A stretch of DNA of 64,000 bases from Oligoflexia bacterium. Its GTDB lineage: Bacteria > Bdellovibrionota > UBA1018. Below the pieces are notes generated by a model. It worked only from the letters and a program-made list of their open reading frames with translations, was not told where the DNA came from and ran no database searches. The translations under genes were made by a program, and so were the position numbers. Of this stretch, positions 2,498 to 61,714 are shown one piece after another. Position 1 is the first letter of the stretch. Each line of letters begins with the position of its first letter. The stretch is taken from contig CAIRTR010000126.1 of NCBI GenBank assembly GCA_903881565.1, positions 15,385 to 79,384 of the forward strand, written 5' to 3'.

Positions 2498-3694
2498 ATG
2501 ATTAAGACAATGAGCAAGGAACTACTGTGTGGAGTGATGGCGCTAGCCGCGACTGCGGGCTGCGGCAAACAAGCGTTTGTCGTCACCTCGAATGTCGAAA
2601 GTCAAAAAGCTCCCGGATTCTTCACGATCGCCCCTAAAGTCGACTTCCTCCTTATTGAAGATGATACGGGTTCAATGCACGAGCCTTTAGCCAATATTCA
2701 AGCCGAAATGCCCCCTTTCCTTAGTGGTCTCGAAGCCAAGGGCTGGAACACCCATTTTGCAACGATCCCTTTGACCACCCCCCGCGCAATCTCTGAAGTC
2801 ATAGCCTCCAAACATGATGGCAACTGGGGTTCGGCGTGGACGAGTCCTTATCCAGGATCTACGATGAGCGATCCAGGAACCCTGCTGGCGTCTGTGTTTC
2901 GCACCGTCGACCAATACGACCAATTTATTACGCAAAAAACGATCACGGCAAACTCAGGCGAAGAAGCGGCGTTTGAGAACATTGCGACAAGCCTGAAAGA
3001 CTCATCCCTGACCCATACAGGGTTTTTAAGAGACGACGCCCTCCTCGTCATGATCGTCCTTGGTAATGGAGACGACACCTCTAAGGTCAAGATGTGCACT
3101 CGCAGCGATGGGTTCAAGGGCCCTTGTGAATACGTGGGCTTTCCGGAGCAAGGAACTCTTCAATCAAGCTTTGATGAATACAAGGCGAAGTTCGCCCAGG
3201 CTAAACCGTCGGCAGATCAGCTCAAATTCTTTTCCATTGTTTCAGCCAACCGAAGCACGACTTGCGCAGGCGGTAATGCCTACCCAGGCCTTCGCTACAT
3301 GCAAATGGCTAAAGAGCTAGGTGGCGCAAGTTACGACGTATGCACAGTGCCGATGAAAGCGATTTTGCAATCCTTGGCTTCTCAGCTTCAAGTCGCAAAG
3401 TATGCCTACAGAACACGTTACTTGCTCTTAGCAAGTGAGCCCAATCCCGCGACCATTGAAGTGACGAAAAACATTGCAGGTGAAACGAGCAACTCGATGG
3501 TCATCGCACAAGACGCTACAAATGGTTGGACCTACAAGGGCCAGATTGTGAGTGAAGCAACGATCGATTCACCGATTTTGATGAACGAAGCCTCAGGCTT
3601 TGCGGTTGAGCTTCACGGCGCTGCGAAGTTGCACGGTGATGACACGGCAACAGTGACATTTAAGCCTGCGGGAGCCGAGAATTCAGCGAAGTAA
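2498..3694 (+). CDS. hypothetical lipoprotein with a possible vWA-like fold
   Basis: The ORF-track ORF begins at 2438. An internal ATG at 2498 has AGGA 7 nt upstream. A signal peptide with a lipobox (LAATAGCG) follows. A DDTGSM motif resembles the vWA MIDAS motif (DxSxS). No confident family assignment. Confidence 0.5.
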   Translation: MIKTMSKELLCGVMALAATAGCGKQAFVVTSNVESQKAPGFFTIAPKVDFLLIEDDTGSMHEPLANIQAEMPPFLSGLEAKGWNTHFATIPLTTPRAISEVIASKHDGNWGSAWTSPYPGSTMSDPGTLLASVFRTVDQYDQFITQKTITANSGEEAAFENIATSLKDSSLTHTGFLRDDALLVMIVLGNGDDTSKVKMCTRSDGFKGPCEYVGFPEQGTLQSSFDEYKAKFAQAKPSADQLKFFSIVSANRSTTCAGGNAYPGLRYMQMAKELGGASYDVCTVPMKAILQSLASQLQVAKYAYRTRYLLLASEPNPATIEVTKNIAGETSNSMVIAQDATNGWTYKGQIVSEATIDSPILMNEASGFAVELHGAAKLHGDDTATVTFKPAGAENSAK

Positions 3695-3813
3695 TCCGCG
3701 ACCTGGACGCGCGAGATACCCGAGCAAACCCTTGCGCTTATCTCGCCGCAACCAACTTTTTTACTCAGGCAACATGCTCAACAAACGCGCGCCTCAAAGC
3801 CACTCGTTAATAA

Positions 3814-3851
3814 GTGGAATAGAGTGGAATTCGATTTCCACCCTATTCCAC
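3814..3851. terminator. Strong inverted repeat (16-bp arms, 6-nt loop) between two convergent genes. Possibly a bidirectional terminator or a protein-binding site.
   Basis: gtggaatagagtggaa-ttcgat-ttccaccctattccac with one mismatch in the arms. There is no U-tract, so intrinsic-terminator function is uncertain. Confidence 0.3.
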
Positions 3852-3892
3852 CCAATGCCTAACGAAACTTGACCCCGCCCCAAACCCCCGAG

Positions 3893-4549
3893 CTAAAACT
3901 TCATTTCAGGTACATCCGCCGGAATAATCAACTTCGCAGCCGTGGCTTTGCGAATATCCTCTGACGATACGCCCGGCGCGCGCTCACGCAACACAAGGCC
4001 ATCCGAAGTGACTTCGATCACAGCCAATTCACTCACAATCTTCTTCACCACACCCACGCCGGTCAAAGGCAGAGAGCAAGCTGGCAATACCTTGCTTGAT
4101 CCGTCTTTAGCGACGTGTTGCATGGCCACGATGACGTTCTTGGCGCCTGCGACCAGATCCATCGCGCCGCCCATTCCTTTGACGACCTTACCAGGAATCA
4201 TCCAATTAGCGATGCTCCCCTTTTCATCCACTTCCATCGCGCCCAATACGGTAAGATCTACATGACCGCCGCGGATCATCGCAAACGAGTCAGCGCTTGA
4301 AAAATAAGAAGCGCCCGCCATCGTCGTCACCGTTTCTTTCCCGGCGTTAATGAGGTCCGCATCGATTTCATCTTCCGAAGGATAGGGCCCAATTCCCAAA
4401 AGCCCGTTCTCACTTTGCAAAATGACGGTCATCCCTTTAGGAATATAATTCGCAACGAGCGTCGGAATCCCAATCCCCAAATTCACGTAATAGCCGTCTT
4501 TAAGTTCCTGCGCGATTCGCATCGCAATTTGTTCACGAGTAAGTGCCAT
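3893..4549 (-). CDS. scoB: 3-oxoacid CoA-transferase subunit B
   Basis: 218 aa. Full-length similarity to the ScoB/AtoA family (NLGIGIPT...SENGLLG...[15 protein letters not shown]). Confidence 0.85.
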
Positions 4550-33551: not shown

Positions 33552-34391
33552 CTAGAAGCCGTCCCCGTCATCATCAAAGTCGCGCTTAATCGAATCAATC
33601 AGCGAATCCACGGACTCGCCCTCGACGTCAAAGTCTTCTGCGTTTTCATCCAGATCAAGATCGTGAATGACTTTGGAAAACTCTTTTTCCGAGGCCAAAT
33701 CTCCACGAATCGCTTCGATATAACGATCCGGATATTTTGCGACAAGCTCTTCGATATACTGATTGAGTTTGCCTTCTTTTAGAATCAGTTCTTTACGCTT
33801 AATCTTTTTCCAATTCTTGATGTAATGAAGTCGGCAATATCCGTGCGTGGTCGCCAATCCTTCACAAGCCACTTCACGGCAAACACTCTCGTCAGACGCG
33901 TAATCTGCGCCAGATCTTTTGCCCGTCTTAAAGCCTAATGCGCTTTTCCCTTTTCCCTTGGCTTGAACCCTCAAAAGGGGCGCAGCTGGCAAAACAGGAG
34001 CAACCACAACGGCCTTTTTGGTCGGTTTTTCTGAAGCTTTAACTTTTTCGACAACCGCGGCCTTCGGAGTAGGCACTGCCTTACCTGTCGCAAGTTTAGC
34101 AATCTTTGCATCTGCTTTTGGCGCTTTTGGCGCCTTCGCAACTTCTTTAATCGGCTTGGCCGGTTTTTTCTTTCCACCGAAAAGTGCGTCTTTGATCGAA
34201 CTTAAAGTGGAGGGCTTTTCTTTAACCTTCGAGACTTTCGGGGCCTTTGCGGCTTTAGCGGCCTTCACGGGCAACGCTTTTTTAGCGGGAGCACTCTTGT
34301 GTTGAGCGCCCTTCTTGAGGGGCTTTGCAGCCTTGGCTCCCATATGAGCTGTTTTTTTCTTTTGAGTCGCACCTTTTTTCGAAGCCGGCAT
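33552..34391 (-). CDS. histone-H1-like lysine/alanine/proline-rich basic protein with a Cys-containing motif and an acidic C-terminal tail
   Basis: 279 aa. The N-terminal 170 aa or so is low-complexity K/A/P-rich (AKKALPVKAAKAAKAPKV...), like the eukaryotic H1 tail or the Hc1/AlgP proteins. This is followed by C-x4-C-x9-C-x2-H (CREVACEGLATTHGYCRLH) and a DE-rich tail. Confidence 0.5.
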   Translation of the reverse strand: MPASKKGATQKKKTAHMGAKAAKPLKKGAQHKSAPAKKALPVKAAKAAKAPKVSKVKEKPSTLSSIKDALFGGKKKPAKPIKEVAKAPKAPKADAKIAKLATGKAVPTPKAAVVEKVKASEKPTKKAVVVAPVLPAAPLLRVQAKGKGKSALGFKTGKRSGADYASDESVCREVACEGLATTHGYCRLHYIKNWKKIKRKELILKEGKLNQYIEELVAKYPDRYIEAIRGDLASEKEFSKVIHDLDLDENAEDFDVEGESVDSLIDSIKRDFDDDGDGF

Positions 34392-50777: not shown

Positions 50778-51417
50778 GCTCTTCGGCCTGCAGCTTGATA
50801 ATCAGCACGAACCGACTCAATCGCGTCTGGAAAGCGTTGTACGACATGACGGCGATCACCGCGACGATAATTCCTGCAGCAGTCGCAATGAGGGATTCTG
50901 AGATCCCCGAAGCCACCACGGCAAACCCGCCCGATCCCGTCTTTGCCATTTCTTGAAAAGAGCGCAAAATCCCAATAACCGTTCCAAAAAGTCCGATAAA
51001 CGGCGAGGCACTTCCGATTGTTCCCAAGACCCAAAGGCTCCCCTTCAACTCTTGGTTAACCAACTGCCGTCTGCGCTCCATCGCTTCTTGCCAGCGCTGC
51101 CTGAGTCTTTGGTCTTTTGAATTTAGGCGTTCAAGGGCGATACTCACCAATGACGCCGTGGGGAGGCTCTTGTTTTCCCGACATAAACGCTCCAAAGCTT
51201 CGCGATCGTTTCTCAAAAGAAGGTTCATCGCATTCAAATGAAACGCGTGTAAAGTGTGACCCAATCTTCGATAGTTCCAGAGTCGCTCAAAAATAACGCC
51301 CCAGGAAAGCAGCGAACACAAAAGCAGCGGGTACATGGCAAAACCGCCACTCCGAATCATATCCCAGATACTTTGCGATGCGAGACTCGACATAGTGCTT
51401 GCCAGGCTATCGAGCAC
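50731..51417 (-). CDS. exbB: MotA/TolQ/ExbB proton-channel protein
   Basis: 228 aa with three TM helices. The conserved C-terminal region is GLFGTVIGI. Confidence 0.75.
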   Translation of the reverse strand: MLDSLASTMSSLASQSIWDMIRSGGFAMYPLLLCSLLSWGVIFERLWNYRRLGHTLHAFHLNAMNLLLRNDREALERLCRENKSLPTASLVSIALERLNSKDQRLRQRWQEAMERRRQLVNQELKGSLWVLGTIGSASPFIGLFGTVIGILRSFQEMAKTGSGGFAVVASGISESLIATAAGIIVAVIAVMSYNAFQTRLSRFVLIIKLQAEELVELIESSESSGNGN

Positions 51418-51454
51418 TCCTTAGTATGTCAACCGAGGAGTAGGGCAACCCCGC

Positions 51455-52503: not shown

Positions 52504-53274
52504 ATGCTACCCATTTACGTAAAAGGATCTCTCGAGTTCACATTTGAAGGGCATTTTCATACCTACGATAAGCAAAATCTGTCTGCCTACGGCGTCAGCG
52601 GTCTGCAATGGGGAGAGTTAGATCCAGAGCGTCATTTTTCAAAAAAACTCAAGGTCACCGTTAAACTAGACACTCCTGAGCCCTTTACCTTCACGGCCGA
52701 GGCTCAGATCATTCGAGAAGCCACTCAAGTTTCGGAACACATGGGACTAAAATTCAGTTTGGCCCCCGAACAAGCAAAAAGAGTGAACGCCTTGATTGCG
52801 AAATATGGGTTTTTCCCTACCGAATATATTCGCAAATACCCAAGAATCCCCTCCCTTTCCGTGATTCAAACTTTTCCGCTACGCGTCCAGGCGACCACAC
52901 TGGTGACTGCCACGAAAGCCAATCCTAAAGTTAAACCCGTTGATCATATATTTGATGTCGGAAACCTGAGCCCGAACGGCATTCTTTTGTCCACGGAAAG
53001 CCTACCCGCACAAACTCTGATGCCCGGACAACGCCTTCTGCTACGAATGGAACCTCGCGGCTGGTTTCCCGTCGGAATCGAAATGGAAGGCGTCATCTGC
53101 CGCGTGGTCGACGACATCAACACCCGCAATGGAAATATCATTCGCTACATCGGGATCAAATTCACCAAAGTGGATGAAATAAATAAAACGATTTTCCTGG
53201 ATCTCCTCAAAGACATCCTCGAGCGCCTCAAAACACTTTCGCCTGAGACCAAAAATGAGCGCAGGAGAGTCTAG
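52504..53274 (+). CDS. PilZ-domain protein, possibly a tandem PilZ of the YcgR type
   Basis: The ORF-track ORF begins at a TTG at 52465; the first ATG is at 52504. The C-terminal half has a DVGNLSPNGILLST PilZ-like motif. An upstream RxxxR equivalent is weak. Confidence 0.45.
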   Translation: MLPIYVKGSLEFTFEGHFHTYDKQNLSAYGVSGLQWGELDPERHFSKKLKVTVKLDTPEPFTFTAEAQIIREATQVSEHMGLKFSLAPEQAKRVNALIAKYGFFPTEYIRKYPRIPSLSVIQTFPLRVQATTLVTATKANPKVKPVDHIFDVGNLSPNGILLSTESLPAQTLMPGQRLLLRMEPRGWFPVGIEMEGVICRVVDDINTRNGNIIRYIGIKFTKVDEINKTIFLDLLKDILERLKTLSPETKNERRRV

Positions 53275-53956
53275 CGTGATTAAAGCCATCTTTTTTGACC
53301 TGGATGGAACGATTATCGACACCGAACCCGCTGCAGGCAGAGCTATTGAAAAATGCTTTGAAAAAGCCGGAATCAAACTCAAAGCGGGCGACGCAGACTT
53401 CATCACCGGGCGAACCTGGGAGTCCGCGTTTGAGTATTTATTTTCAGTTTACGCCGTCCCCTTTCCTCATGAAAGACTTAAAGAGAACGTGCTGCGCACC
53501 TATCGCCAGGAACTTCAGCGCGAACTCCCCCAGGTCGCCGGGAGTGCTGAGGCCGTAAAAAGTCTGGCCGCAAAATTTCCCTTAGCCCTTGTCAGTGGCT
53601 CTACCCGCTCTGATATTCTGTGGGCGCTGGATCATTTGAAAATCAGGCACTGCTTCAAGACCGTCGTCGGAGCCGAAGACTATCCAAACAGCAAACCCTC
53701 ACCCGACCCCTATCTCACCGCGATGAAAGAACTCGGAATAAATCCAGGACAAGGACTCGCCTTTGAAGACTCCCTTGCCGGGATCACCTCCGCTAACGCA
53801 GCGGGACTATATGTCGTGGCGATTTCATCAACGAATCACCTGGGTCAGGATACGACGCAAGCTCAAGCCAAGATCAAGGACTTGCAGGGGATTACTCCTA
53901 AATGGATTGAGGAATTTTCTTCCGGAAATCTCAAACCCATGCCATCCTACGGCTAA
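53255..53956 (+). CDS. HAD-superfamily hydrolase (beta-phosphoglucomutase / phosphatase subfamily IA)
   Basis: 233 aa. Motif I FFDLDGTIIDT. Motifs II and III are consistent with HAD-IA. Confidence 0.75.
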   Translation: MSAGESSVIKAIFFDLDGTIIDTEPAAGRAIEKCFEKAGIKLKAGDADFITGRTWESAFEYLFSVYAVPFPHERLKENVLRTYRQELQRELPQVAGSAEAVKSLAAKFPLALVSGSTRSDILWALDHLKIRHCFKTVVGAEDYPNSKPSPDPYLTAMKELGINPGQGLAFEDSLAGITSANAAGLYVVAISSTNHLGQDTTQAQAKIKDLQGITPKWIEEFSSGNLKPMPSYG

Positions 53957-53985
53957 ACCTGTAGGCTAATAAAGGAGATCCTATC

Positions 53986-54465
53986 GTGAAATCGTTTCGA
54001 AATATTTTCGTTCTTATTGCATCAATGTTAACTCTCGTTTCATGCTTTGAAAAAGACAAGGCACCTGAAACCGCTGCCGCACCAGCTGCTACGGCAGAAG
54101 CTCAAAAAGGAGCGCCCGTGACCCAAGCTCAAACCGGAAATCCTGAACTCAAAAGTGAAGACCTCAAAGTCGGCACCGGGGCTGAAGCCGTGACGGGTAA
54201 AACCGTCTCCGTTCATTATACGGGCTGGCTCACGGATGGCAAAAAATTTGATTCTTCTTTGGACCGCAAAGAACCTTTCAAATTTCCACTCGGCGCAGGA
54301 CAAGTCATTCAAGGCTGGGACAAAGGCGTCGTCGGTATGAAAGTCGGCGGGAAACGTAAACTGACGATCCCTTCTGAAATGGGCTATGGCGCACAAGGCG
54401 CGGGCGGCGTGATTCCGGCTAACGCTACTTTGGTATTTGAAGTTGAACTTTTGGGGGTAGAATAA
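53986..54465 (+). CDS. FKBP-type peptidyl-prolyl cis-trans isomerase lipoprotein
   Basis: 159 aa. Lipobox LTLVSC. The FKBP domain includes [18 protein letters not shown]…[20 protein letters not shown]…GYG. Confidence 0.8.
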
Positions 54466-54466
54466 A

Positions 54467-54706
54467 ATGTCCGAAGCAGAAGCACCAAAAAATGAATGTC
54501 TTGTAGTGGCATCAAAAGTGAAGAATTACATTCGCGAAAGCTCGCAGCTCAACACTTCGGCTGCCGTGATGGATATTCTTTCGGCTCAGGTTAAATCCCT
54601 GTGCGATAAAGCCGTCGAAAATGCAAAAAAAGACGGAAGAAAAACGGTGATGGACCGAGATTTTCCCGGCTTTGGAGGCAGTGAAGAACCCGCCGCTTCT
54701 TGCTAA
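54467..54706 (+). CDS. histone-fold DNA-binding protein (archaeal HMf-like / bacterial histone)
   Basis: 79 aa. It aligns by eye to archaeal HMfB: LVVASKVKNYIRE with LPIAPIGRIIKDA, and CDKAVENAKKDGRKTVMDRDF with ASEAIKLARHAGRKTIKAEDI. The alpha3 helix looks truncated, as reported for Bdellovibrio histones. It starts 2 nt after the FKBP stop and is followed by a strong terminator. Confidence 0.65.
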   Translation: MSEAEAPKNECLVVASKVKNYIRESSQLNTSAAVMDILSAQVKSLCDKAVENAKKDGRKTVMDRDFPGFGGSEEPAASC

Positions 54707-54715
54707 ATGAATTGT

Positions 54716-54752
54716 GACCCGTTCCGGGATTCCGGGACGGGTCTTTTTTTTT
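54716..54752 (+). terminator. Rho-independent terminator after the histone-fold gene
   Basis: gacccgttccgg-gat-tccgggacgggtc followed by T9, read directly from the sequence. Confidence 0.75.
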
Positions 54753-54782
54753 GCGGTTTCTTTAAAACTCACCCAAAATCTC

Positions 54783-55826
54783 ATGACCTTTACCTTAATT
54801 CTCTTCATCACCGTCGCCGTTTTGTTTGACTTCATGAACGGCTTCAACGACAGCGCCAATATCGTTTCAACGATGATCTCCTCTCGCGCGCTTTCTCCCC
54901 GGCAAGCCCTCACCATCACGGCCATCGCTGAATTTATCGGGCCCTTTTTATTTGGGGTGGCGGTTGCTAAAACGATTGGTTCCGGTGTCCTTACCTTGCC
55001 CTCTGACGCTGCCACAGCCCTGCCCCTGATTCTCTCCTCCCTCGTGGCAGCCGTGTGCTGGAACATCCTGACGTGGCACTCTGGCATACCGTCAAGTTCC
55101 TCCCATGCGCTCATTGGCGGACTGCTCGGCGCTGCGATCTCGCACAGTACCATTGTTCACCTGGAAAAAGGGATCGTGACGTTGCAGGATTTTTACAGTA
55201 TTTTTGAAGTTGTCAAAATTTCAGGCCTCATCAAAATCGTGACCTCGCTGCTTATTTCTCCGGCTGTGGGATTTATTGCGGGATTTTTACTCCTCAAGCT
55301 TTTTCGTTTTCTAGCGCGAGGCTCTAGCCCCGCGATCAATGTATTTTTCAAAAAAGGCCAAATCATAACTGCCGTCGGTCTTGCGCTCTCTCATGGCACC
55401 AACGACGCGCAAAAGACGATGGGGATCATCACCATGGGACTCTTGGCTACGGGCCAGATCCATGAGTTTCAGGTGCCCATGTGGGTCGTCGCTTTGAGTG
55501 CAAGCGCCATCGCTTTAGGAACCTCCGTGGGTGGCTGGAGACTCATTCGCACTCTTGGCTCCGGATTCTTTAGAATTCGTCCCATCGATGGGTTTTCCAC
55601 CCAAATTGGCTCAGGCTTGGTGATTGTTTGCGCCTCTCTCTTAGGCGGTCCCGTGAGCACCACACAAGTGGTGTCCACCGCCATCATGGGGGTGGGAAGC
55701 GCGGACCGGATGTCGAAAGTCCGCTGGGGCGTGAGCAAGCAAATCATTATTACTTGGATTATTACCATTCCCTGCACTTCGGTTCTTGCAGGGCTACTCT
55801 ATCTTGCAATGAGGAAAACACTATGA
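54783..55826 (+). CDS. inorganic phosphate transporter of the PiT family
   Basis: The family N-terminus MTFTLILFITVAVLFDFMNGFNDSAN (GxNDxAN signature) starts at the ATG at 54783, not the ORF-track start at 54714. A second GTNDAQK repeat is present. Confidence 0.8.
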   Translation: MTFTLILFITVAVLFDFMNGFNDSANIVSTMISSRALSPRQALTITAIAEFIGPFLFGVAVAKTIGSGVLTLPSDAATALPLILSSLVAAVCWNILTWHSGIPSSSSHALIGGLLGAAISHSTIVHLEKGIVTLQDFYSIFEVVKISGLIKIVTSLLISPAVGFIAGFLLLKLFRFLARGSSPAINVFFKKGQIITAVGLALSHGTNDAQKTMGIITMGLLATGQIHEFQVPMWVVALSASAIALGTSVGGWRLIRTLGSGFFRIRPIDGFSTQIGSGLVIVCASLLGGPVSTTQVVSTAIMGVGSADRMSKVRWGVSKQIIITWIITIPCTSVLAGLLYLAMRKTL

Positions 55827-56452
55827 GTTGGTTCAATGATTTTCTAAAACCCCGAAAAGACAATTTTCGCGAATACCTGATTCAACAAGCGCAAATCGGA
55901 GTCGTGGGACTTGAGGGCCTGGTCGCCTATATGAAGAACCCGACCCCCGAAAACGAAGAGCGCGTGAATCGGGCCGAAAAAGATGGCGACGAAGTCAGGC
56001 GTATTCTCATCGATGATTTGTCCCGCACCTTTGTCACCCCCATTGACCGCGAAGATATCTTCAAACTTTCGCGCGCCGTGGATGATTTGCTGGATTATGC
56101 CCACTCCACCGTGGACGAAATGGTCGTTTTAAATGTGAGTCCCACCGAACATCTCGTCAGCATGGCCACCATGCTGCTTGAAGCTTCGCGGGAAATTCTA
56201 TTGGCCCTCCAACGCATTGAGCGTCACCCGGCGGTCGCCAGCGAGCATGCTCGCAAAGCCAAGCGTTTTGAGAACAACGTCGAAAAAACCTATCGCAAAG
56301 CCATTGCGGAGCTCTTTACCGAAACTGAAAACGCACCCGAAATCGTGCGCATGTTAAAGAAGCGTGAAGTCTACCGGCATCTTTCCAATGCGGCGGACAG
56401 AGCGGATGAGGCGGCGAACATTATCGCGGATATCGTGGTTAAAACGACATGA
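55823..56452 (+). CDS. DUF47 / PhoU-like PiT accessory protein (TIGR00153 family)
   Basis: GAGG-N8-ATG at 55823 overlaps the pit stop (ATGA). The ORF-track ORF extends upstream in an overlapping frame. The sequence is helical and PhoU-like, and this family is typically pit-adjacent. Confidence 0.7.
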   Translation: MSWFNDFLKPRKDNFREYLIQQAQIGVVGLEGLVAYMKNPTPENEERVNRAEKDGDEVRRILIDDLSRTFVTPIDREDIFKLSRAVDDLLDYAHSTVDEMVVLNVSPTEHLVSMATMLLEASREILLALQRIERHPAVASEHARKAKRFENNVEKTYRKAIAELFTETENAPEIVRMLKKREVYRHLSNAADRADEAANIIADIVVKTT

Positions 56453-56910
56453 ATCACGCGGTCAATCCAAAGATCGCTGAGTGGATTCGCAGCGAGGCTC
56501 ATAACCTCTTAGCCCCCCCTCCCCTAGCTCTCGCGATTTTCGGCTCTTTCGCTAGAGGTGACCAGGGACCCGATAGTGACCTAGATATATTGCTTGTATG
56601 CGATGAGATCGGACGCAGCCCCTCCCTCCGATCTAAATGGTTTTTCCCCTTAAGCAAGAAGTTGCGTGAGCAAACTCAATTCCCTGAGCTTCCAAAGGCG
56701 ATTTCACCCCTGATTTTAAGTTCTCAAGGATGGCAAGATGCCCTCCATCTGCAACTCTCTCTATGCACAGAGGCTTGTGTTTTGTTGGATTCTGGGTTGC
56801 TCAGTTCGACATTTGCAAGTGCGCAGGAACTCATTCGCAAAGGCGAATGGAAAAGGGTTCCAACACCCGATCACGGCTTCTTTTGGATCCCTAAGGATAA
56901 AATCGCATGA
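56449..56910 (+). CDS. minimal nucleotidyltransferase (MNT) antitoxin of a HEPN/MNT module
   Basis: 153 aa. GSFARGDQGPDSDLDILLV, the Pol-beta-type NTase motif GS-x9-DxD. Overlaps the upstream stop (ATGA). Confidence 0.75.
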   Translation: MNHAVNPKIAEWIRSEAHNLLAPPPLALAIFGSFARGDQGPDSDLDILLVCDEIGRSPSLRSKWFFPLSKKLREQTQFPELPKAISPLILSSQGWQDALHLQLSLCTEACVLLDSGLLSSTFASAQELIRKGEWKRVPTPDHGFFWIPKDKIA

Positions 56911-57278
56911 CGCCTTCACAGAAAACCCGGGCTGATTATTTGCACCGCTCGGCAATCCGGGTTGCGCTTGAAGCCAAGGAAAATGCAGTAAAAAAAGAGT
57001 TCGATCGAGTCATCCGAAAGACGCACGAGGCACTCGAACTTTTGTTTAAGGGGCTTTTAATTGAACAAGGTATAGAACCCGCCAAAACTCATGATCTAAG
57101 TCAACTCTACCAGCGAATTGCCAATCCAAAATTTCAACTTCAGGAAGATGATCTTACCTTCCTGACGGAACAACGCATCCCTGCGTTCTATGGCGCGCCC
57201 GATTTTGTCCCAGACGAAGATTATAGCGATGAAGATTGTAGCCGCTGCTTGTCTTTGCTGGCTGCTGCGGGGCTTTAA
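56907..57278 (+). CDS. HEPN-domain toxin of the HEPN/MNT module
   Basis: 123 aa, all-alpha. R-x5-H (RVIRKTHEA) fits the HEPN Rx4-6H motif. A 4-nt overlap with the MNT gene is the typical TA gene arrangement. Confidence 0.65.
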   Translation: MTPSQKTRADYLHRSAIRVALEAKENAVKKEFDRVIRKTHEALELLFKGLLIEQGIEPAKTHDLSQLYQRIANPKFQLQEDDLTFLTEQRIPAFYGAPDFVPDEDYSDEDCSRCLSLLAAAGL

Positions 57279-58149: not shown

Positions 58150-58362
58150 ATGACAGTCAAAGTCTCTCCCAAGTACCAAGTCGTCATCCCCGAAGCAGTC
58201 CGAACTGCCCTGGGCATTCGCGCTGGATCTCAAATCGAAGTGATCGCCAAAGGGAAAGTGGCTTACCTCGTGCCTCTTCAAAGTCTTGAAGACTTGCAGA
58301 CCGAACTTGCAAATAGTTTGAACAATAAAAACCTTCGTGAAAAGAAGGACCGCGCGTTGTGA
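58150..58362 (+). CDS. vapB: AbrB/MazE/SpoVT-family antitoxin (VapB-like)
   Basis: 70 aa. MTVKVSPKYQVVIPEAVRTALGIRAGSQIEV has the swapped-hairpin beta-barrel signature. Overlaps vapC by 4 nt. Confidence 0.7.
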   Translation: MTVKVSPKYQVVIPEAVRTALGIRAGSQIEVIAKGKVAYLVPLQSLEDLQTELANSLNNKNLREKKDRAL

Positions 58363-58739
58363 GCTTGTGCTTCGTCTTGGATTCTTCAGTTTGGATTGAA
58401 CTGCTCAATAAAGGCCCACTCCTCAAGGAATGCACAAAAGTCCTGAAGAATGCTCAGCGAATTATCGTACCTACTCTCGTTCTTTTCGAGGTTTATAAGA
58501 AAATAGCCGCGTGCCACACAGAAGACCAGGCCCTCTCCGCAATCGCACTTTTGAGTCAACACGAGGTGATGGACATGACTCGTGAAATCGCATTAGCCGC
58601 AGCTGACCTCTCGCTCCAAAAGCGATTAGCGATGGCCGATAGCATTGTCCTTGCACATGCGCAACAGAGCGGAGCCGTACTTGTTACCCTGGACAATGAT
58701 TTTGTGGGCATTTCAGATACCCAGGTTATTCGAGGCTAA
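58359..58739 (+). CDS. vapC: PIN-domain ribonuclease toxin VapC
   Basis: 126 aa. Acidic PIN residues are present (LDSSVWIE…, …LAMADSIVLAHA…, TLDNDF). Confidence 0.75.
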   Translation: MSLCFVLDSSVWIELLNKGPLLKECTKVLKNAQRIIVPTLVLFEVYKKIAACHTEDQALSAIALLSQHEVMDMTREIALAAADLSLQKRLAMADSIVLAHAQQSGAVLVTLDNDFVGISDTQVIRG

Positions 58740-58745
58740 TAAAAG

Positions 58746-59921
58746 CTAGACGTAATCCCCGCGCTTGATCTTCTCCAAGATAATCTTCTCAGGCATGATC
58801 GGATCCCTGGGATCAACAGTAAAATAAGCCTGCTGCTCACAACGACGTTTATGCGTCAGCAACCATTTTAAGATCGCGGCCAATCCTTTGTTACGCTTAT
58901 CTTTGAAGAACGGATCGTTCGCGAGCGCATCCGAGGCCTTTTTCAGAGCGCGCACTTCTTGAGCGTCGTTTTCTTTTACCGGATAATCGGCCAGATCGTA
59001 CTTCTTAATATCTTCGGGCAACACGCCCAGGAACTTCACATCGGGCGCGCTAAAATCCGAGTTTCGAATCAAGCTTGAGGCCGAACCGGCCTTCAGGGTT
59101 CTGAAAATGTTCTGCATGGTGTACGCGTCGAGATCCCCCCAGAAAAAGAGCGGGATTTTGAGCTGATCTTGAATCGTCTTACTCCAGGCGCGCACGGCGT
59201 TTGAAGGAACCCCCCCCGAACCAATGAGAATACAATTGTTGCGCTTCGTAAACCCGTTGACGACCAACGTATTGGCCGTACCTTCGGATTCAATAATGAT
59301 GGCGAAATCAATTTTCTTTTTAGCCGTGAGCTTCAACTTCTGCGGCCTATTTTTGGGCTGAAAGGGTGAAGTCCCCATCTTGGACAAATCAATCACAGCC
59401 TTCTCACCATCGGACATCGTCTCGGTGACGATCAAATGCTGAGAATAGGTCTGCCCGCCACGATCGTTGGCGTAGCAATTAAACTCTTCGCGATAACACT
59501 CCAGCATCTCACAGATGAAGTCGATGATCTCATCGGACTCATCTTGCGAACCAAAGTCCAAAGGCCTAAGGCTCGGATTATGCTTAATTTCCCCTTTGGA
59601 CATGTAGTACAATTCGCGTTTCGTATTAACGGCGCCGGTTTCAATGTTTCGCAGCAGAATCTCAAGGAGGAAAATTGCTCGCGACATCTTCTTCACCGAA
59701 CTCACATTGAGCTCGGTCGCCACTTTTTTAGGACCTGGCGTGAGATAACCCACCTTAAAATCATAGCGTGAGTTATCCAGCGAACACTTGGTCGCCCTCA
59801 GCACCGGGCGCTTTGCTTTTTCGAGATCCGCTAAAAGCAGGCTGCACATCTCACGGCTTAAATTTGGAATACTATCTTCGGATTTATGCGACTTATTGGA
59901 TCGCGATGATTCAAGAGCCAT
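58746..59921 (-). CDS. type IIB DNA topoisomerase subunit A (Top6A/Spo11 homologue) with a winged-helix and a Toprim domain
   Basis: 391 aa. The catalytic-Tyr motif RELYYMS fits Top6A (R-E-[IL]-Y-Y). The Toprim acidic residues are in IIIESEGT and GDLDAYT (DxD). It lies 5 nt downstream of the Top6B gene. Confidence 0.8.
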   Translation of the reverse strand: MALESSRSNKSHKSEDSIPNLSREMCSLLLADLEKAKRPVLRATKCSLDNSRYDFKVGYLTPGPKKVATELNVSSVKKMSRAIFLLEILLRNIETGAVNTKRELYYMSKGEIKHNPSLRPLDFGSQDESDEIIDFICEMLECYREEFNCYANDRGGQTYSQHLIVTETMSDGEKAVIDLSKMGTSPFQPKNRPQKLKLTAKKKIDFAIIIESEGTANTLVVNGFTKRNNCILIGSGGVPSNAVRAWSKTIQDQLKIPLFFWGDLDAYTMQNIFRTLKAGSASSLIRNSDFSAPDVKFLGVLPEDIKKYDLADYPVKENDAQEVRALKKASDALANDPFFKDKRNKGLAAILKWLLTHKRRCEQQAYFTVDPRDPIMPEKIILEKIKRGDYV

Positions 59922-59926
59922 GAATT

Positions 59927-61714
59927 TTATTTCCCCTTAGCCTTTTTTGAGACTTTTTTCTTGGATTCTTTTGCGGATTCTTTTTTGCCCTTTTTAACAG
60001 GCTTATCTTCAGAACCCTCCAACTCCTCAGCGCCTTCTGAGTCTGGCCCCTCCGATGGCGCCGGCGGCGGCGGAAGTGATGGCGCCTCCGTGACCTTCGC
60101 AGCCTCGAGCAGCGCGTGCGCTTTATCAAGTTCCTGTTGAGTCGCGTGAGCGTCGCGTCCAAGCAACTTCAACAACCCCTCTTCGGCGCGTTTTTTGCGC
60201 GCTTCTGATGCCGAAGTTATCCTGCACAACCCCTCCACCAAAATCGGCCCAAACTGCTCGATGTGGCGAATCTTCTCTTCCAGCTCGTTCGCCTTGACTT
60301 CGCGACGGATATGCTTAGAGAGCCGTTGCCCGGCTTGAATCAAGGCTCGGCGAATCTCTTCAACGAGTTCGTCTGATCCATCAATCGTTTCTTTAGAGGC
60401 ATTCTTAAACTTGATGAACGGCGAGACCACGCTCACCGCCATAATATAGGGACCTAAGGGGAGCCCATCTTTGGGTTGCGCAAGACCATAGGCACGCCAA
60501 TTTACGGACTCAATGGCGTGAACAATGGCGCAAGCGGATTTATCAAACTGCAACGGCACTCGGTTGGCAAAGCGCAAAATCTGCGCGGGCGTTTCATGCT
60601 CCTGCGCTTTTTCTTCAAGCCGAGCCACCGCCACTTCAATCTGCACGGGTTTGAAATCACAAATCGTAGGTTTACGAGAAACCACCGCGAAAAAATCCAC
60701 GGCGCCCAATCGCTTGATACTCTTAGCCAGCGTTTCTTCGCCAACCGAAAGCACCGACTTCGTCGAAGGCGCCATGAGCTTCAGATTTTGGAGGGCAATA
60801 AAAAGTTCCTTAAAATCCGCGTCGCCGATCGCGTCCACCGATTTATCCAGCACGCCTCTCTTGATCCCGGCCTTCACCAGGTCATTCAAAACACCTTCAT
60901 GAATCCGGGAAAATCCCTTCTTGAGCCAGGCTTCGATTTTGACTCGCCCAAATAAATGGGAGTGGGACATGAACTCTCCCAGCTTCATCGTATGCGGGTG
61001 CGGCGCCGTGGCTTCAGGGAGTTCCGGGATCGCATCACTCACTCGCGTAACGGTATGGGGCTCAAGCTCGGGCAACTTATAATGCAAGGTCAGATGAGGA
61101 TTCACGAGCGCGGTGCCATTCAAATAATTAAGCAAACCCGCATCGCCATTAAGCTGAACGCGACCATCCACCAAGAACTCAACGGATGTGCCATGAGGCC
61201 TGTCCCAATCAATGGTTTCTTTTTCTTTAAGGTGTCCCCGATTATTTTTGATATCGACTTCAACCAGACAGGACATCGCTTTGCGCATCGACTCAGTTTT
61301 CGTAATCACTCTTGCGCCCACGGCACTGGTCAATTGCGCCCAAGTCGTCGCCGCTGAAATCCCGATCCCTTGCTGTCCACGGGAGCAGCGACCCTTGCCA
61401 AATTTTGAGGAGGCCAAATACTCGCCAAACACTTTGGGGACGTCATCCACGTCGATCCCAGGCCCGTTGTCTACGACGCGAATTCGAATCTGATCCGCAT
61501 TCTTAAGAGATCCCTGCCCCACTTTTTCAACGAGAACAGAAACCTCAGGGAGAATTCCCGACTCTTCGCAGGCATCAAGCGCGTTATCGACCGATTCTTT
61601 TAAGGTCGTCAACACCGCTTTCGTTTGTGAAGAGAAGCCGACTTGTTGTAAGTTTTTTGAGAAATATTCCGCCGTACTACTCGAGGTAATTTTTGCATTT
61701 GCCTTGCTTGCCAT
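59927..61714 (-). CDS. type IIB DNA topoisomerase subunit B (Top6B homologue), a GHKL/Bergerat-fold ATPase with a transducer domain and a K-rich C-terminal tail
   Basis: 595 aa. N-box ESVDNALDACEE, G1 box VVDNGPGI, G2 box SRGQQGIGIS. Overall length and order match Top6B. The last 50 aa or so are P-, E- and K-rich (KKGKKESAKESKKKVSKKAKGK). Confidence 0.8.
   Translation of the reverse strand: MASKANAKITSSSTAEYFSKNLQQVGFSSQTKAVLTTLKESVDNALDACEESGILPEVSVLVEKVGQGSLKNADQIRIRVVDNGPGIDVDDVPKVFGEYLASSKFGKGRCSRGQQGIGISAATTWAQLTSAVGARVITKTESMRKAMSCLVEVDIKNNRGHLKEKETIDWDRPHGTSVEFLVDGRVQLNGDAGLLNYLNGTALVNPHLTLHYKLPELEPHTVTRVSDAIPELPEATAPHPHTMKLGEFMSHSHLFGRVKIEAWLKKGFSRIHEGVLNDLVKAGIKRGVLDKSVDAIGDADFKELFIALQNLKLMAPSTKSVLSVGEETLAKSIKRLGAVDFFAVVSRKPTICDFKPVQIEVAVARLEEKAQEHETPAQILRFANRVPLQFDKSACAIVHAIESVNWRAYGLAQPKDGLPLGPYIMAVSVVSPFIKFKNASKETIDGSDELVEEIRRALIQAGQRLSKHIRREVKANELEEKIRHIEQFGPILVEGLCRITSASEARKKRAEEGLLKLLGRDAHATQQELDKAHALLEAAKVTEAPSLPPPPAPSEGPDSEGAEELEGSEDKPVKKGKKESAKESKKKVSKKAKGK

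Follow-up and report, generated by a model that had tools for sequence, protein, structure and literature searches.

We examined a short gene in a 64,000-nucleotide stretch of DNA (the window) from an Oligoflexia bacterium (assembly GCA_903881565.1, contig CAIRTR010000126.1, positions 15,385 to 79,384 of the forward strand). The gene encodes a 79-residue histone-fold protein and lies between a gene for an FKBP-type peptidyl-prolyl isomerase and an intrinsic terminator (Table 1). A sequence-only reading of the window had placed its start 2 nt after the FKBP gene, and this is correct: the FKBP stop codon TAA is at 54463-54465 and is followed by a single base (54466) and then the histone ATG. A Shine-Dalgarno-like GGGGG is found ahead of the ATG, and related loci have AAGGAG or GGAG at the equivalent place. 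The terminator starts ten bases past the histone stop. It had been described as a hairpin plus T9, and mapping of the stem agreed with this, as did the folding energy of the region (-26.9 kcal/mol, z = -4.4; 0 out of 200 shuffled sequences were as stable). It is the only terminator-like site on the + strand between 50800 and 56000. By a heuristic search, about 10 related loci also have a hairpin of at least -20 kcal/mol in strength and a T-run after the histone gene.

Table 1. Features of the window and of the histone-fold protein (nucleotide positions are those of the window; residue numbers are those of the 79-residue protein, with HBb counterparts in the last column).
Feature	Position	Strand	Evidence or remark
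Histone gene, 79 aa, ATG to TAA	54467-54706	+	open reading frame list
Shine-Dalgarno-like GGGGG (putative)	54453-54457	+	9 nt 5' of the histone ATG, within the 3' end of the FKBP gene
Intrinsic terminator	stem-loop 54716-54743; T9 54744-54752	+	12-bp stem (9 G-C), 4-nt GAUU loop, T9
FKBP-type peptidyl-prolyl isomerase gene	53986-54465	+	Pfam FKBP_C, E 7e-40; NCBIfam FkpA/FklB-like
Weak sigma-70-like promoter match, 9/12	51399-51427	+	ahead of the DUF4340-PilZ-HAD-FKBP-histone run
PHO4 transporter gene, public call	54714-55826	+	starts at GTG 54714
PHO4 transporter gene, more plausible extent	54783-55826	+	starts at ATG 54783, near the start of the Pfam match
Nucleotidyltransferase + HEPN pair	56449-57278	+	toxin-antitoxin-like
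MazE-like antitoxin + PIN pair	about 58150-58739	+	toxin-antitoxin-like
Topo VI subunit A	58746-59921	-	Pfam TP6A_N and TOP6A Toprim
Topo VI subunit B	59927-61714	-	Pfam Topo-VIb_trans
279-aa open reading frame	33552-34391	-	N-terminal ~150 residues Lys/Ala/Pro-rich (H1-like or AlgP-like composition)
Antisense 213-aa open reading frame	54512-55153	-	taken as spurious
Acidic N-tail	residues 1-9		
Histone fold	residues 10-66		
Helix alpha1	residues 15-26		followed by loop L1
Helix alpha2	residues 33-55		followed by loop L2, with R58-K59-T60
Helix alpha3, one turn	residues 63-65		
Disordered acidic Gly-rich C-tail	residues 67-79		
RD clamp	R58-D65, D56		HBb R51-D58, reinforced by D49
DNA contacts	N29, R64, S16, T60, A15, S31, K17, K19, K59, R23		HBb N22, R57, S9, T53, T8, S24, K10, K12, K52, K16
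Positions mutated to Phe/His/Leu to tetramerise Bd0055	N52, K55, G68		HBb S45, A48, I61

Judged by its conservation, the open reading frame is a real conserved gene. It matched 238 proteins at E<=1e-3 in a database clustered at 90%, and in a 50% representative library it matched 557 clusters at E<=1e-3 and 181 at E<=1e-10. The homologues are overwhelmingly from Bdellovibrionota. An identical protein is already recorded in NCBI, ENA and Logan, and sits on metagenome scaffold ERZ18641359 / SAMEA6872864. The closest named relative is the orthologue of FG-2, with 82% identity. The two genes differ at 55 bases, 34 of them at third codon positions, and there are 25 synonymous and 14 non-synonymous codon changes between them. 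No second histone gene was found when the family hidden Markov model (HMM) was searched against all six-frame open reading frames of the window, as this one alone matched. It was only in 2023-2024 that bacterial histones were characterised, and to our knowledge the only solved structures are those of HBb (Bdellovibrio) and HLp (Leptospira).

Curated family models alone would have left the assignment of the protein ambiguous. The Pfam histone model PF00808 (CBFD_NFYB_HMF) gave 18.4 bits, under its cut-off of 21.4, and the NCBIfam archaea_histone model NF043032 gave 21.2 bits, under its cut-off of 50. Among the 116 homologues whose alignment (A2) was used to build a family profile, 96 matched PF00808 at E<0.01, the best at 6e-5. 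Sequence and fold searches of the PDB settled the call. With phmmer, residues 10-66 aligned gaplessly to HBb/Bd0055 of B. bacteriovorus HD100 (8cmp, 8fvx, 9ezz, 9f0e) at E 1.1e-15 and 60.6 bits, with about 60% identity over the fold, while the face-to-face histones HTkC (30.8 bits, E 3e-6) and HLp (26.7 bits, E 6e-5) were about 30 bits weaker. The family profile matched HBb at 2.8e-24, HLp at 7.8e-11 and HTkC at 1.6e-9, and nucleosome-type archaeal histones reached 1e-3 to 1e-5 at most. An AlphaFold2 model made from the family alignment has a mean pLDDT of 83.6; the residues of the fold exceed 90, and the tail is near 50. Apart from the two longer helices, DSSP assigns an alpha3 helix to 63-65 only, and Pro67-Gly68 follow. 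In Foldseek, the best five PDB matches of this single-chain model were all HBb chains (root mean square deviation, rmsd, 0.5-0.6 Å over 55-57 residues; target-normalised TM-score 0.88-0.94), with 0.5 Å over 57 residues for 9ezz_A. HTkC and HLp came next, and eukaryotic and archaeal nucleosomal histones were far behind.

The bacterial-dimer class of histones is defined operationally by clustering with Bd0055 (Schwab et al. 2024). The window protein clusters with Bd0055, and it has the fold topology, the short alpha3 (3-4 residues in the class), the short alpha2 (4-5 residues less than in nucleosomal histones), the RKTxxxD motif with the RD clamp, and the alpha1 DNA-contact residues of this class. 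Alpha2 is 23 residues long in the model, with a 4-residue gap relative to HmvA in the HMMER alignment, and query residues 16-66 cover 55 residues in HmvA and HHoB; such a 4-residue deletion is diagnostic of bacterial singlet and alpha3 histones. Like HBb, the protein also has an extra Asp at the clamp, Ser-Lys-x-Lys in alpha1 and none of the residues that support tetramerisation, and both come from the phylum Bdellovibrionota. We are therefore confident that the gene product is an alpha3-truncated 'bacterial dimer' histone, a close relative of HBb/Bd0055, from an uncultured member of Bdellovibrionota, probably of class UBA1018/'Bdellonasia'. The sequence-only reading had called it a histone-fold protein with a truncated alpha3 of the Bdellovibrio kind, and its interpretation is essentially right. 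The protein is an unannotated addition to a family described in 2023-2024 and nothing categorically new. Homologues of Bd0055 have been reported in 67% of Bdellovibrionota genomes (PMC10627809).

The same reading had aligned the protein with the archaeal histone HMfB. The two belong to one superfamily, but the protein scores under both archaeal-histone cut-offs and has neither a full alpha3 nor the tetramerisation His, both of which HMf-type wrapping requires. Its string GRKTVMDRDF had been said to match GRKTIKAEDI, which we take to be the HMfB string, nearly residue for residue. Five of the ten residues are identical and two are conservative, and thus the statement was somewhat overstated. 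If the protein were an HMf-type nucleosomal histone, it would wrap DNA as hypernucleosome-like particles. It does share the histone fold, the RKT of L2, the RD clamp and the RKT...D motif with nucleosomal archaeal histones (HMfB, HTkA, Asgard HHoB; PF00808), and it weakly matches Asgard HHoB and HmvA. However, its alpha3 is one turn instead of about 10 residues, its alpha2 is four residues shorter, and K55 stands at the position of HMfB H49. Moreover, even Bd0055 needed three engineered substitutions to bring DNA ends together (PMC10627809). The likelihood of such a histone here is close to negligible, and no DNA wrapping is expected for the window protein.

Residues were mapped onto HBb with the HMMER alignment (window number = HBb number + 7), and their roles were taken from the HBb studies (PMC11317129 and PMC10627809). 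Eight of the ten DNA-contact residues are identical to those of HBb. Of the other two, K16->R23 is conservative and T8->A15 is the family consensus. In the 116 homologues V14, S16, K17, and G57 through D65 are invariant, and the string D56-G57-R58-K59-T60-V61-M62-D63-R64-D65 is intact in the window protein. No His is present at the tetramerisation positions in this mapping. The conserved Lys of RKT also bears on whether the protein could be a face-to-face alpha3 histone of the kind found in Leptospira (HLp) or Thermococcus (HTkC), with tetramers that bridge or wrap DNA. HLp (9qt0) and HTkC (9f2c) have the same truncated alpha3, the same short alpha2 and a similar length, they superpose in Foldseek at an rmsd of 1.1-1.4 Å, both were matched in the PDB search, and such histones occur in the sister class Bacteriovoracia. 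On the other hand, they are only 35-38% identical to the window protein and are outscored by HBb. At the face-to-face interface positions R48/N52 (HMM-logo numbering), HLp has R and N, whereas the window protein has N52 and D56, and the Lys of RKT, weak in face-to-face histones, is invariant in the window family. We thus regard a face-to-face histone as extremely unlikely.

A ZZ-type zinc finger is also absent: there are only 9 residues ahead of the fold, and no further Pfam domain was found in the protein. It lacks what defines nucleosomal, face-to-face and ZZ histones. A 164-aa protein of B. bacteriovorus Bd5 and kdesi (L037, L038; about 3500-4195) has a Cys/His-rich N-terminal region, absent from the window protein, and an HBb-like C-terminal fold. 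This fold is identical to that of the window protein at 36 of 57 residues and has the exact DGRKTVMDRDF end, with the C-terminus DGRKTVMDRDFEFLKK. We presume that the 164-aa protein is Bd3044, which Schwab et al. call a 'ZZ histone'. No ZZ domain was found in it by Pfam at E<0.01, and we do not assert a ZZ identity for it.

Several observations weigh against our assignment or against the DNA-bending role that it would suggest. The curated Pfam and NCBIfam scores remain under their cut-offs. By hand count, the protein shares 34 of 57 residues with Bd0055 and 36 of 57 with the histone domain of the 164-aa protein, and strict orthology to Bd0055 is thus not established. The full protein is net acidic (isoelectric point, pI, 5.4; charge about -1.5), and its core has a charge of about +2 (pI 8.7), less than the family median (+4) or the HBb core (about +3). 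With an acidic protein and a weakly basic core, affinity for DNA could be weaker or regulated by the tails. Finally, the published work on HBb disagrees, with bending of DNA in one study (PMC11317129) and end-on coating in the other (PMC10627809).

Unlike HBb, which has 2 and 5 extra residues at its ends, the window protein has tails of 9 (N) and 13 (C) residues, and its core is less basic (K13->N20, K18->S25). The C-tail is acidic and Gly-rich (PGFGGSEEPAASC), is predicted to be disordered and ends in Cys. It has a counterpart only in FG-2 (EVAGGSEEPPASC) and partly in GWB1_55_8. A short tail had been proposed as a reported feature of Bdellovibrio histones, and this did not hold: the family feature is the truncated alpha3, and 86 of 101 homologues end 0-2 residues past RDF. 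Acidic Ser/Thr/Glu/Gly-rich N-tails are typical of metagenomic HBb-like singlets (median 13 residues, median charge -4), and about half of the 101 family members have a pI below 7 owing to such tails. Bd0055 does not have one. The histone fold might no longer act on DNA in the window protein, but serve as a protein-protein scaffold or be mostly auto-inhibited by the acidic tails. Its net negative charge, with both tails acidic, and the frequency of acidic family members fit this, and Schwab et al. suggested for coiled-coil histones that negatively charged tails might cover the DNA face. However, all of the residues that contact DNA or shape L2 are strongly conserved, the folded core is still basic, and the tails are short and predicted to be disordered. 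A loss of DNA binding of this kind, as a scaffold or under auto-inhibition, is highly improbable.

By homology to HBb, two chains of the window protein would pair through the histone handshake. The dimer would contact the DNA backbone with no sequence specificity via the paired L1-L2 loops (N29, S31, K59, T60, R64), with further contacts from S16, K17, K19 and R23 in the first alpha1 turn. L2 would be shaped by the R58-D65 clamp, reinforced by D56. The dimers are predicted to be unable to stack as tetramers or hypernucleosomes because alpha3 is a single turn and N52, K55 and G68 are in place of Phe, His and Leu. Such a histone may be an abundant protein of the nucleoid and bend DNA locally, or coat it at high density, rather than wrap it.

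The two modes have both been described for HBb. In the Bd0055-DNA crystal, dimers are placed end-on and sheathe straight DNA (PMC10627809). Under this model (Hocher et al.), a histone of the same family would form a 'nucleohistone filament' that encases DNA via one L1-L2 face with no bending, and the L1-L2 residues concerned are kept in the window protein. Later HBb-DNA crystals, tethered-particle and circularisation experiments and molecular dynamics instead support bending by about 84 degrees, in which the N-terminus of alpha1 is also used (PMC11317129). The alpha1 residues S16, K17 and K19 are invariant or nearly so, which is hard to explain with the L1-L2 face alone, and acidic tails at both ends might disfavour tight packing of dimer against dimer. 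We therefore favour bending, since the alpha1 contacts that only the bent model uses do not vary within the family, and consider the end-on filament unlikely for the window protein.

Among the top metagenomic representatives there are numerous tandem doublets of the HBb-type fold (P0003, P0004, P0121-P0139 and others), which are 126-274 aa long with two matched stretches. No discussion of HBb-type tandem doublets was found in the survey papers drawn on here. The model of P0003 (pLDDT 82) has paired L1/L2 beta-bridges and forms a handshake pseudo-dimer from a single chain. In the PDB it is most like the M. kandleri HMk doublet histone (1f1e), followed by single-chain H2A-H2B; Melbournevirus doublets and the SOS histone domain were also matched. 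This pseudo-dimer lends indirect support to a canonical dimer in the family, which HBb crystals show directly.

The histone gene is the last of five genes on the same strand, which encode a DUF4340 protein, a PilZ-like protein, a HAD hydrolase, the FKBP and the histone, with gaps of -20 to +29 nt. No promoter of its own was recognisable for the histone gene. The weak sigma-70-like match ahead of the run is a candidate start of a transcription unit that would end at the histone terminator, and no + strand terminator was found between this match and 54716. The FKBP and histone genes are probably co-transcribed, and the histone would be read from the end of this multi-gene unit and closed by the strong intrinsic terminator. 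We also counted the genomic context over 80 related genome loci. In 24 of them (e.g. L003-L007, L013-L015, L019-L022) the histone gene is directly preceded by an FKBP gene, mostly with gaps of 9-85 nt and good ribosome-binding sites. In these loci a truncated-globin gene is often next after the pair, overlapping or abutting the histone stop.

In the window, the FKBP carries a lipobox (LVSC, residues 17-20) and is predicted to be exported as a lipoprotein; in most of the 24 linked loci the FKBP likewise has a signal peptide or lipobox. We considered whether the FKBP could be a histone chaperone or proline isomerase, as yeast Fpr4 is, and rejected this. The protein has the lipobox and is FkpA/FklB-like, and since the FKBP would be exported and the histone cytoplasmic, a chaperone relationship is unlikely.

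The public call of the PHO4 transporter gene downstream starts inside the terminator hairpin, and the ATG near the beginning of its Pfam match is a more plausible start. The antisense open reading frame was taken as spurious because it overlaps two conserved genes on the + strand. No Rfam RNA element was found in 53000-56000 at E<=0.1. The GC content of the histone gene is 46.7%, compared to 50.5% for the window. A foreign or phage origin was rejected: the neighbours are ordinary chromosomal genes (fab, pst, ppk) and give no hint of a mobile element. The remaining window also looks like ordinary chromosome, with a fab cluster, rpmF, SHMT, pstSCAB-phoU, phoBR, ppk and photolyase.

The sequence-only reading had further proposed that the window carries an unusual concentration of archaeal- or eukaryote-like chromatin proteins, with topoisomerase VI (Topo VI) at 59 kb and an H1-like protein at 33.5 kb. 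The first is real, as both subunits A and B were identified by Pfam, and its proximity to the histone gene is conserved in the clade, which lends some support to a neighbourhood that is not random. The likeness to H1 is compositional only: the N-terminal region is rich in Lys, Ala and Pro, but the protein has no Pfam, NCBIfam or PDB match. Its C-terminal part has an acidic end and the motif CxxxxC...CxxH.

Topo VI had been known before from B. bacteriovorus (PMC11302465). In the window, the Topo VI genes are convergent with the histone gene, 4.0 kb downstream, and outside its transcription unit. Of the 24 FKBP-linked loci, 10 have Topo VI at most 4 kb from the histone gene, against none of the 56 other loci, and linkage was also seen in FG-1 (0.4 kb) and the P0073 contig (4.5 kb). 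The linked loci are L013, L014, L015, L018, L019, L021, L026, L031, L032, L041 and L087 (FG-1), while Topo VI is not linked to the histone gene in GWB1_55_8. The common order is ExbB< DUF4340> (PilZ>) HAD> FKBP> histone> (globin>) <Top6A <Top6B <AI-2E RmuC>. Topo VI is usually convergent with the histone gene, and once, in L021, co-directional, with Top6B-Top6A-FKBP-histone on one strand. The set of genes between histone and Top6A is variable: the window has PHO4-PhoU_div, a nucleotidyltransferase-HEPN pair, Tag (a 3-methyladenine glycosylase gene) and a MazE-PIN pair, and the two pairs are toxin-antitoxin-like. Relatives carry a globin or methyltransferase gene in this zone.

Inherited synteny is the simplest account of the histone-Topo VI block, since unrelated genes share it. 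The linkage does survive rearrangement in the UBA1018-like clade, and a figure legend in PMC11390915 describes Topo VI-like genes adjoining IHF-type histones. The archaeal-type functions of histone (chromatin) and Topo VI (topology) might be coupled, with the two either co-acquired or kept together because a histone that constrains supercoils requires a dedicated type IIB relaxase/decatenase. In addition, the lineage-specific acidic N- and C-tails might tune or auto-inhibit DNA binding. We give this proposal little credence. If it were true, tail-tuned DNA binding would make the protein a regulated bacterial histone variant.

The nearest named genomes, FG-2 (L003) and FG-1 (L087), are metagenome-assembled genomes of magnetotactic Bdellovibrionota. 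They have been placed in GTDB class UBA1018, for which the name 'Bdellonasia' has been proposed, and L026, which shares the gene order, is a member of JAMPXJ01, a UBA1018 genus named in the same work (PMC13200544). No magnetosome genes turned up in those parts of the window that were annotated. The source of the window is probably UBA1018-like and not Bdellovibrionia, the class of HBb. The FKBP-histone cluster and the Topo VI block are clade-specific, and the lineage-specific variation of the histone itself is minor, in tails, charge and operon context. Histone genes of the alpha3 type have been published as single-gene operons. A stand-alone gene was seen for a 61-aa homologue in a 3.1-Mb genome, whereas the window gene lies behind an FKBP lipoprotein gene; in B. 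bacteriovorus the genome scan reached the gene of the 164-aa paralogue rather than bd0055. With its polycistronic, Topo VI-linked setting, the histone gene of the window is in conflict with the general view that genes of the alpha3 type are solitary. The finding also documents the HBb-type histone family in a recently described and partly magnetotactic class, UBA1018. With its acidic tails and weakly basic core, this natural histone variant could help to settle whether HBb bends or coats DNA.

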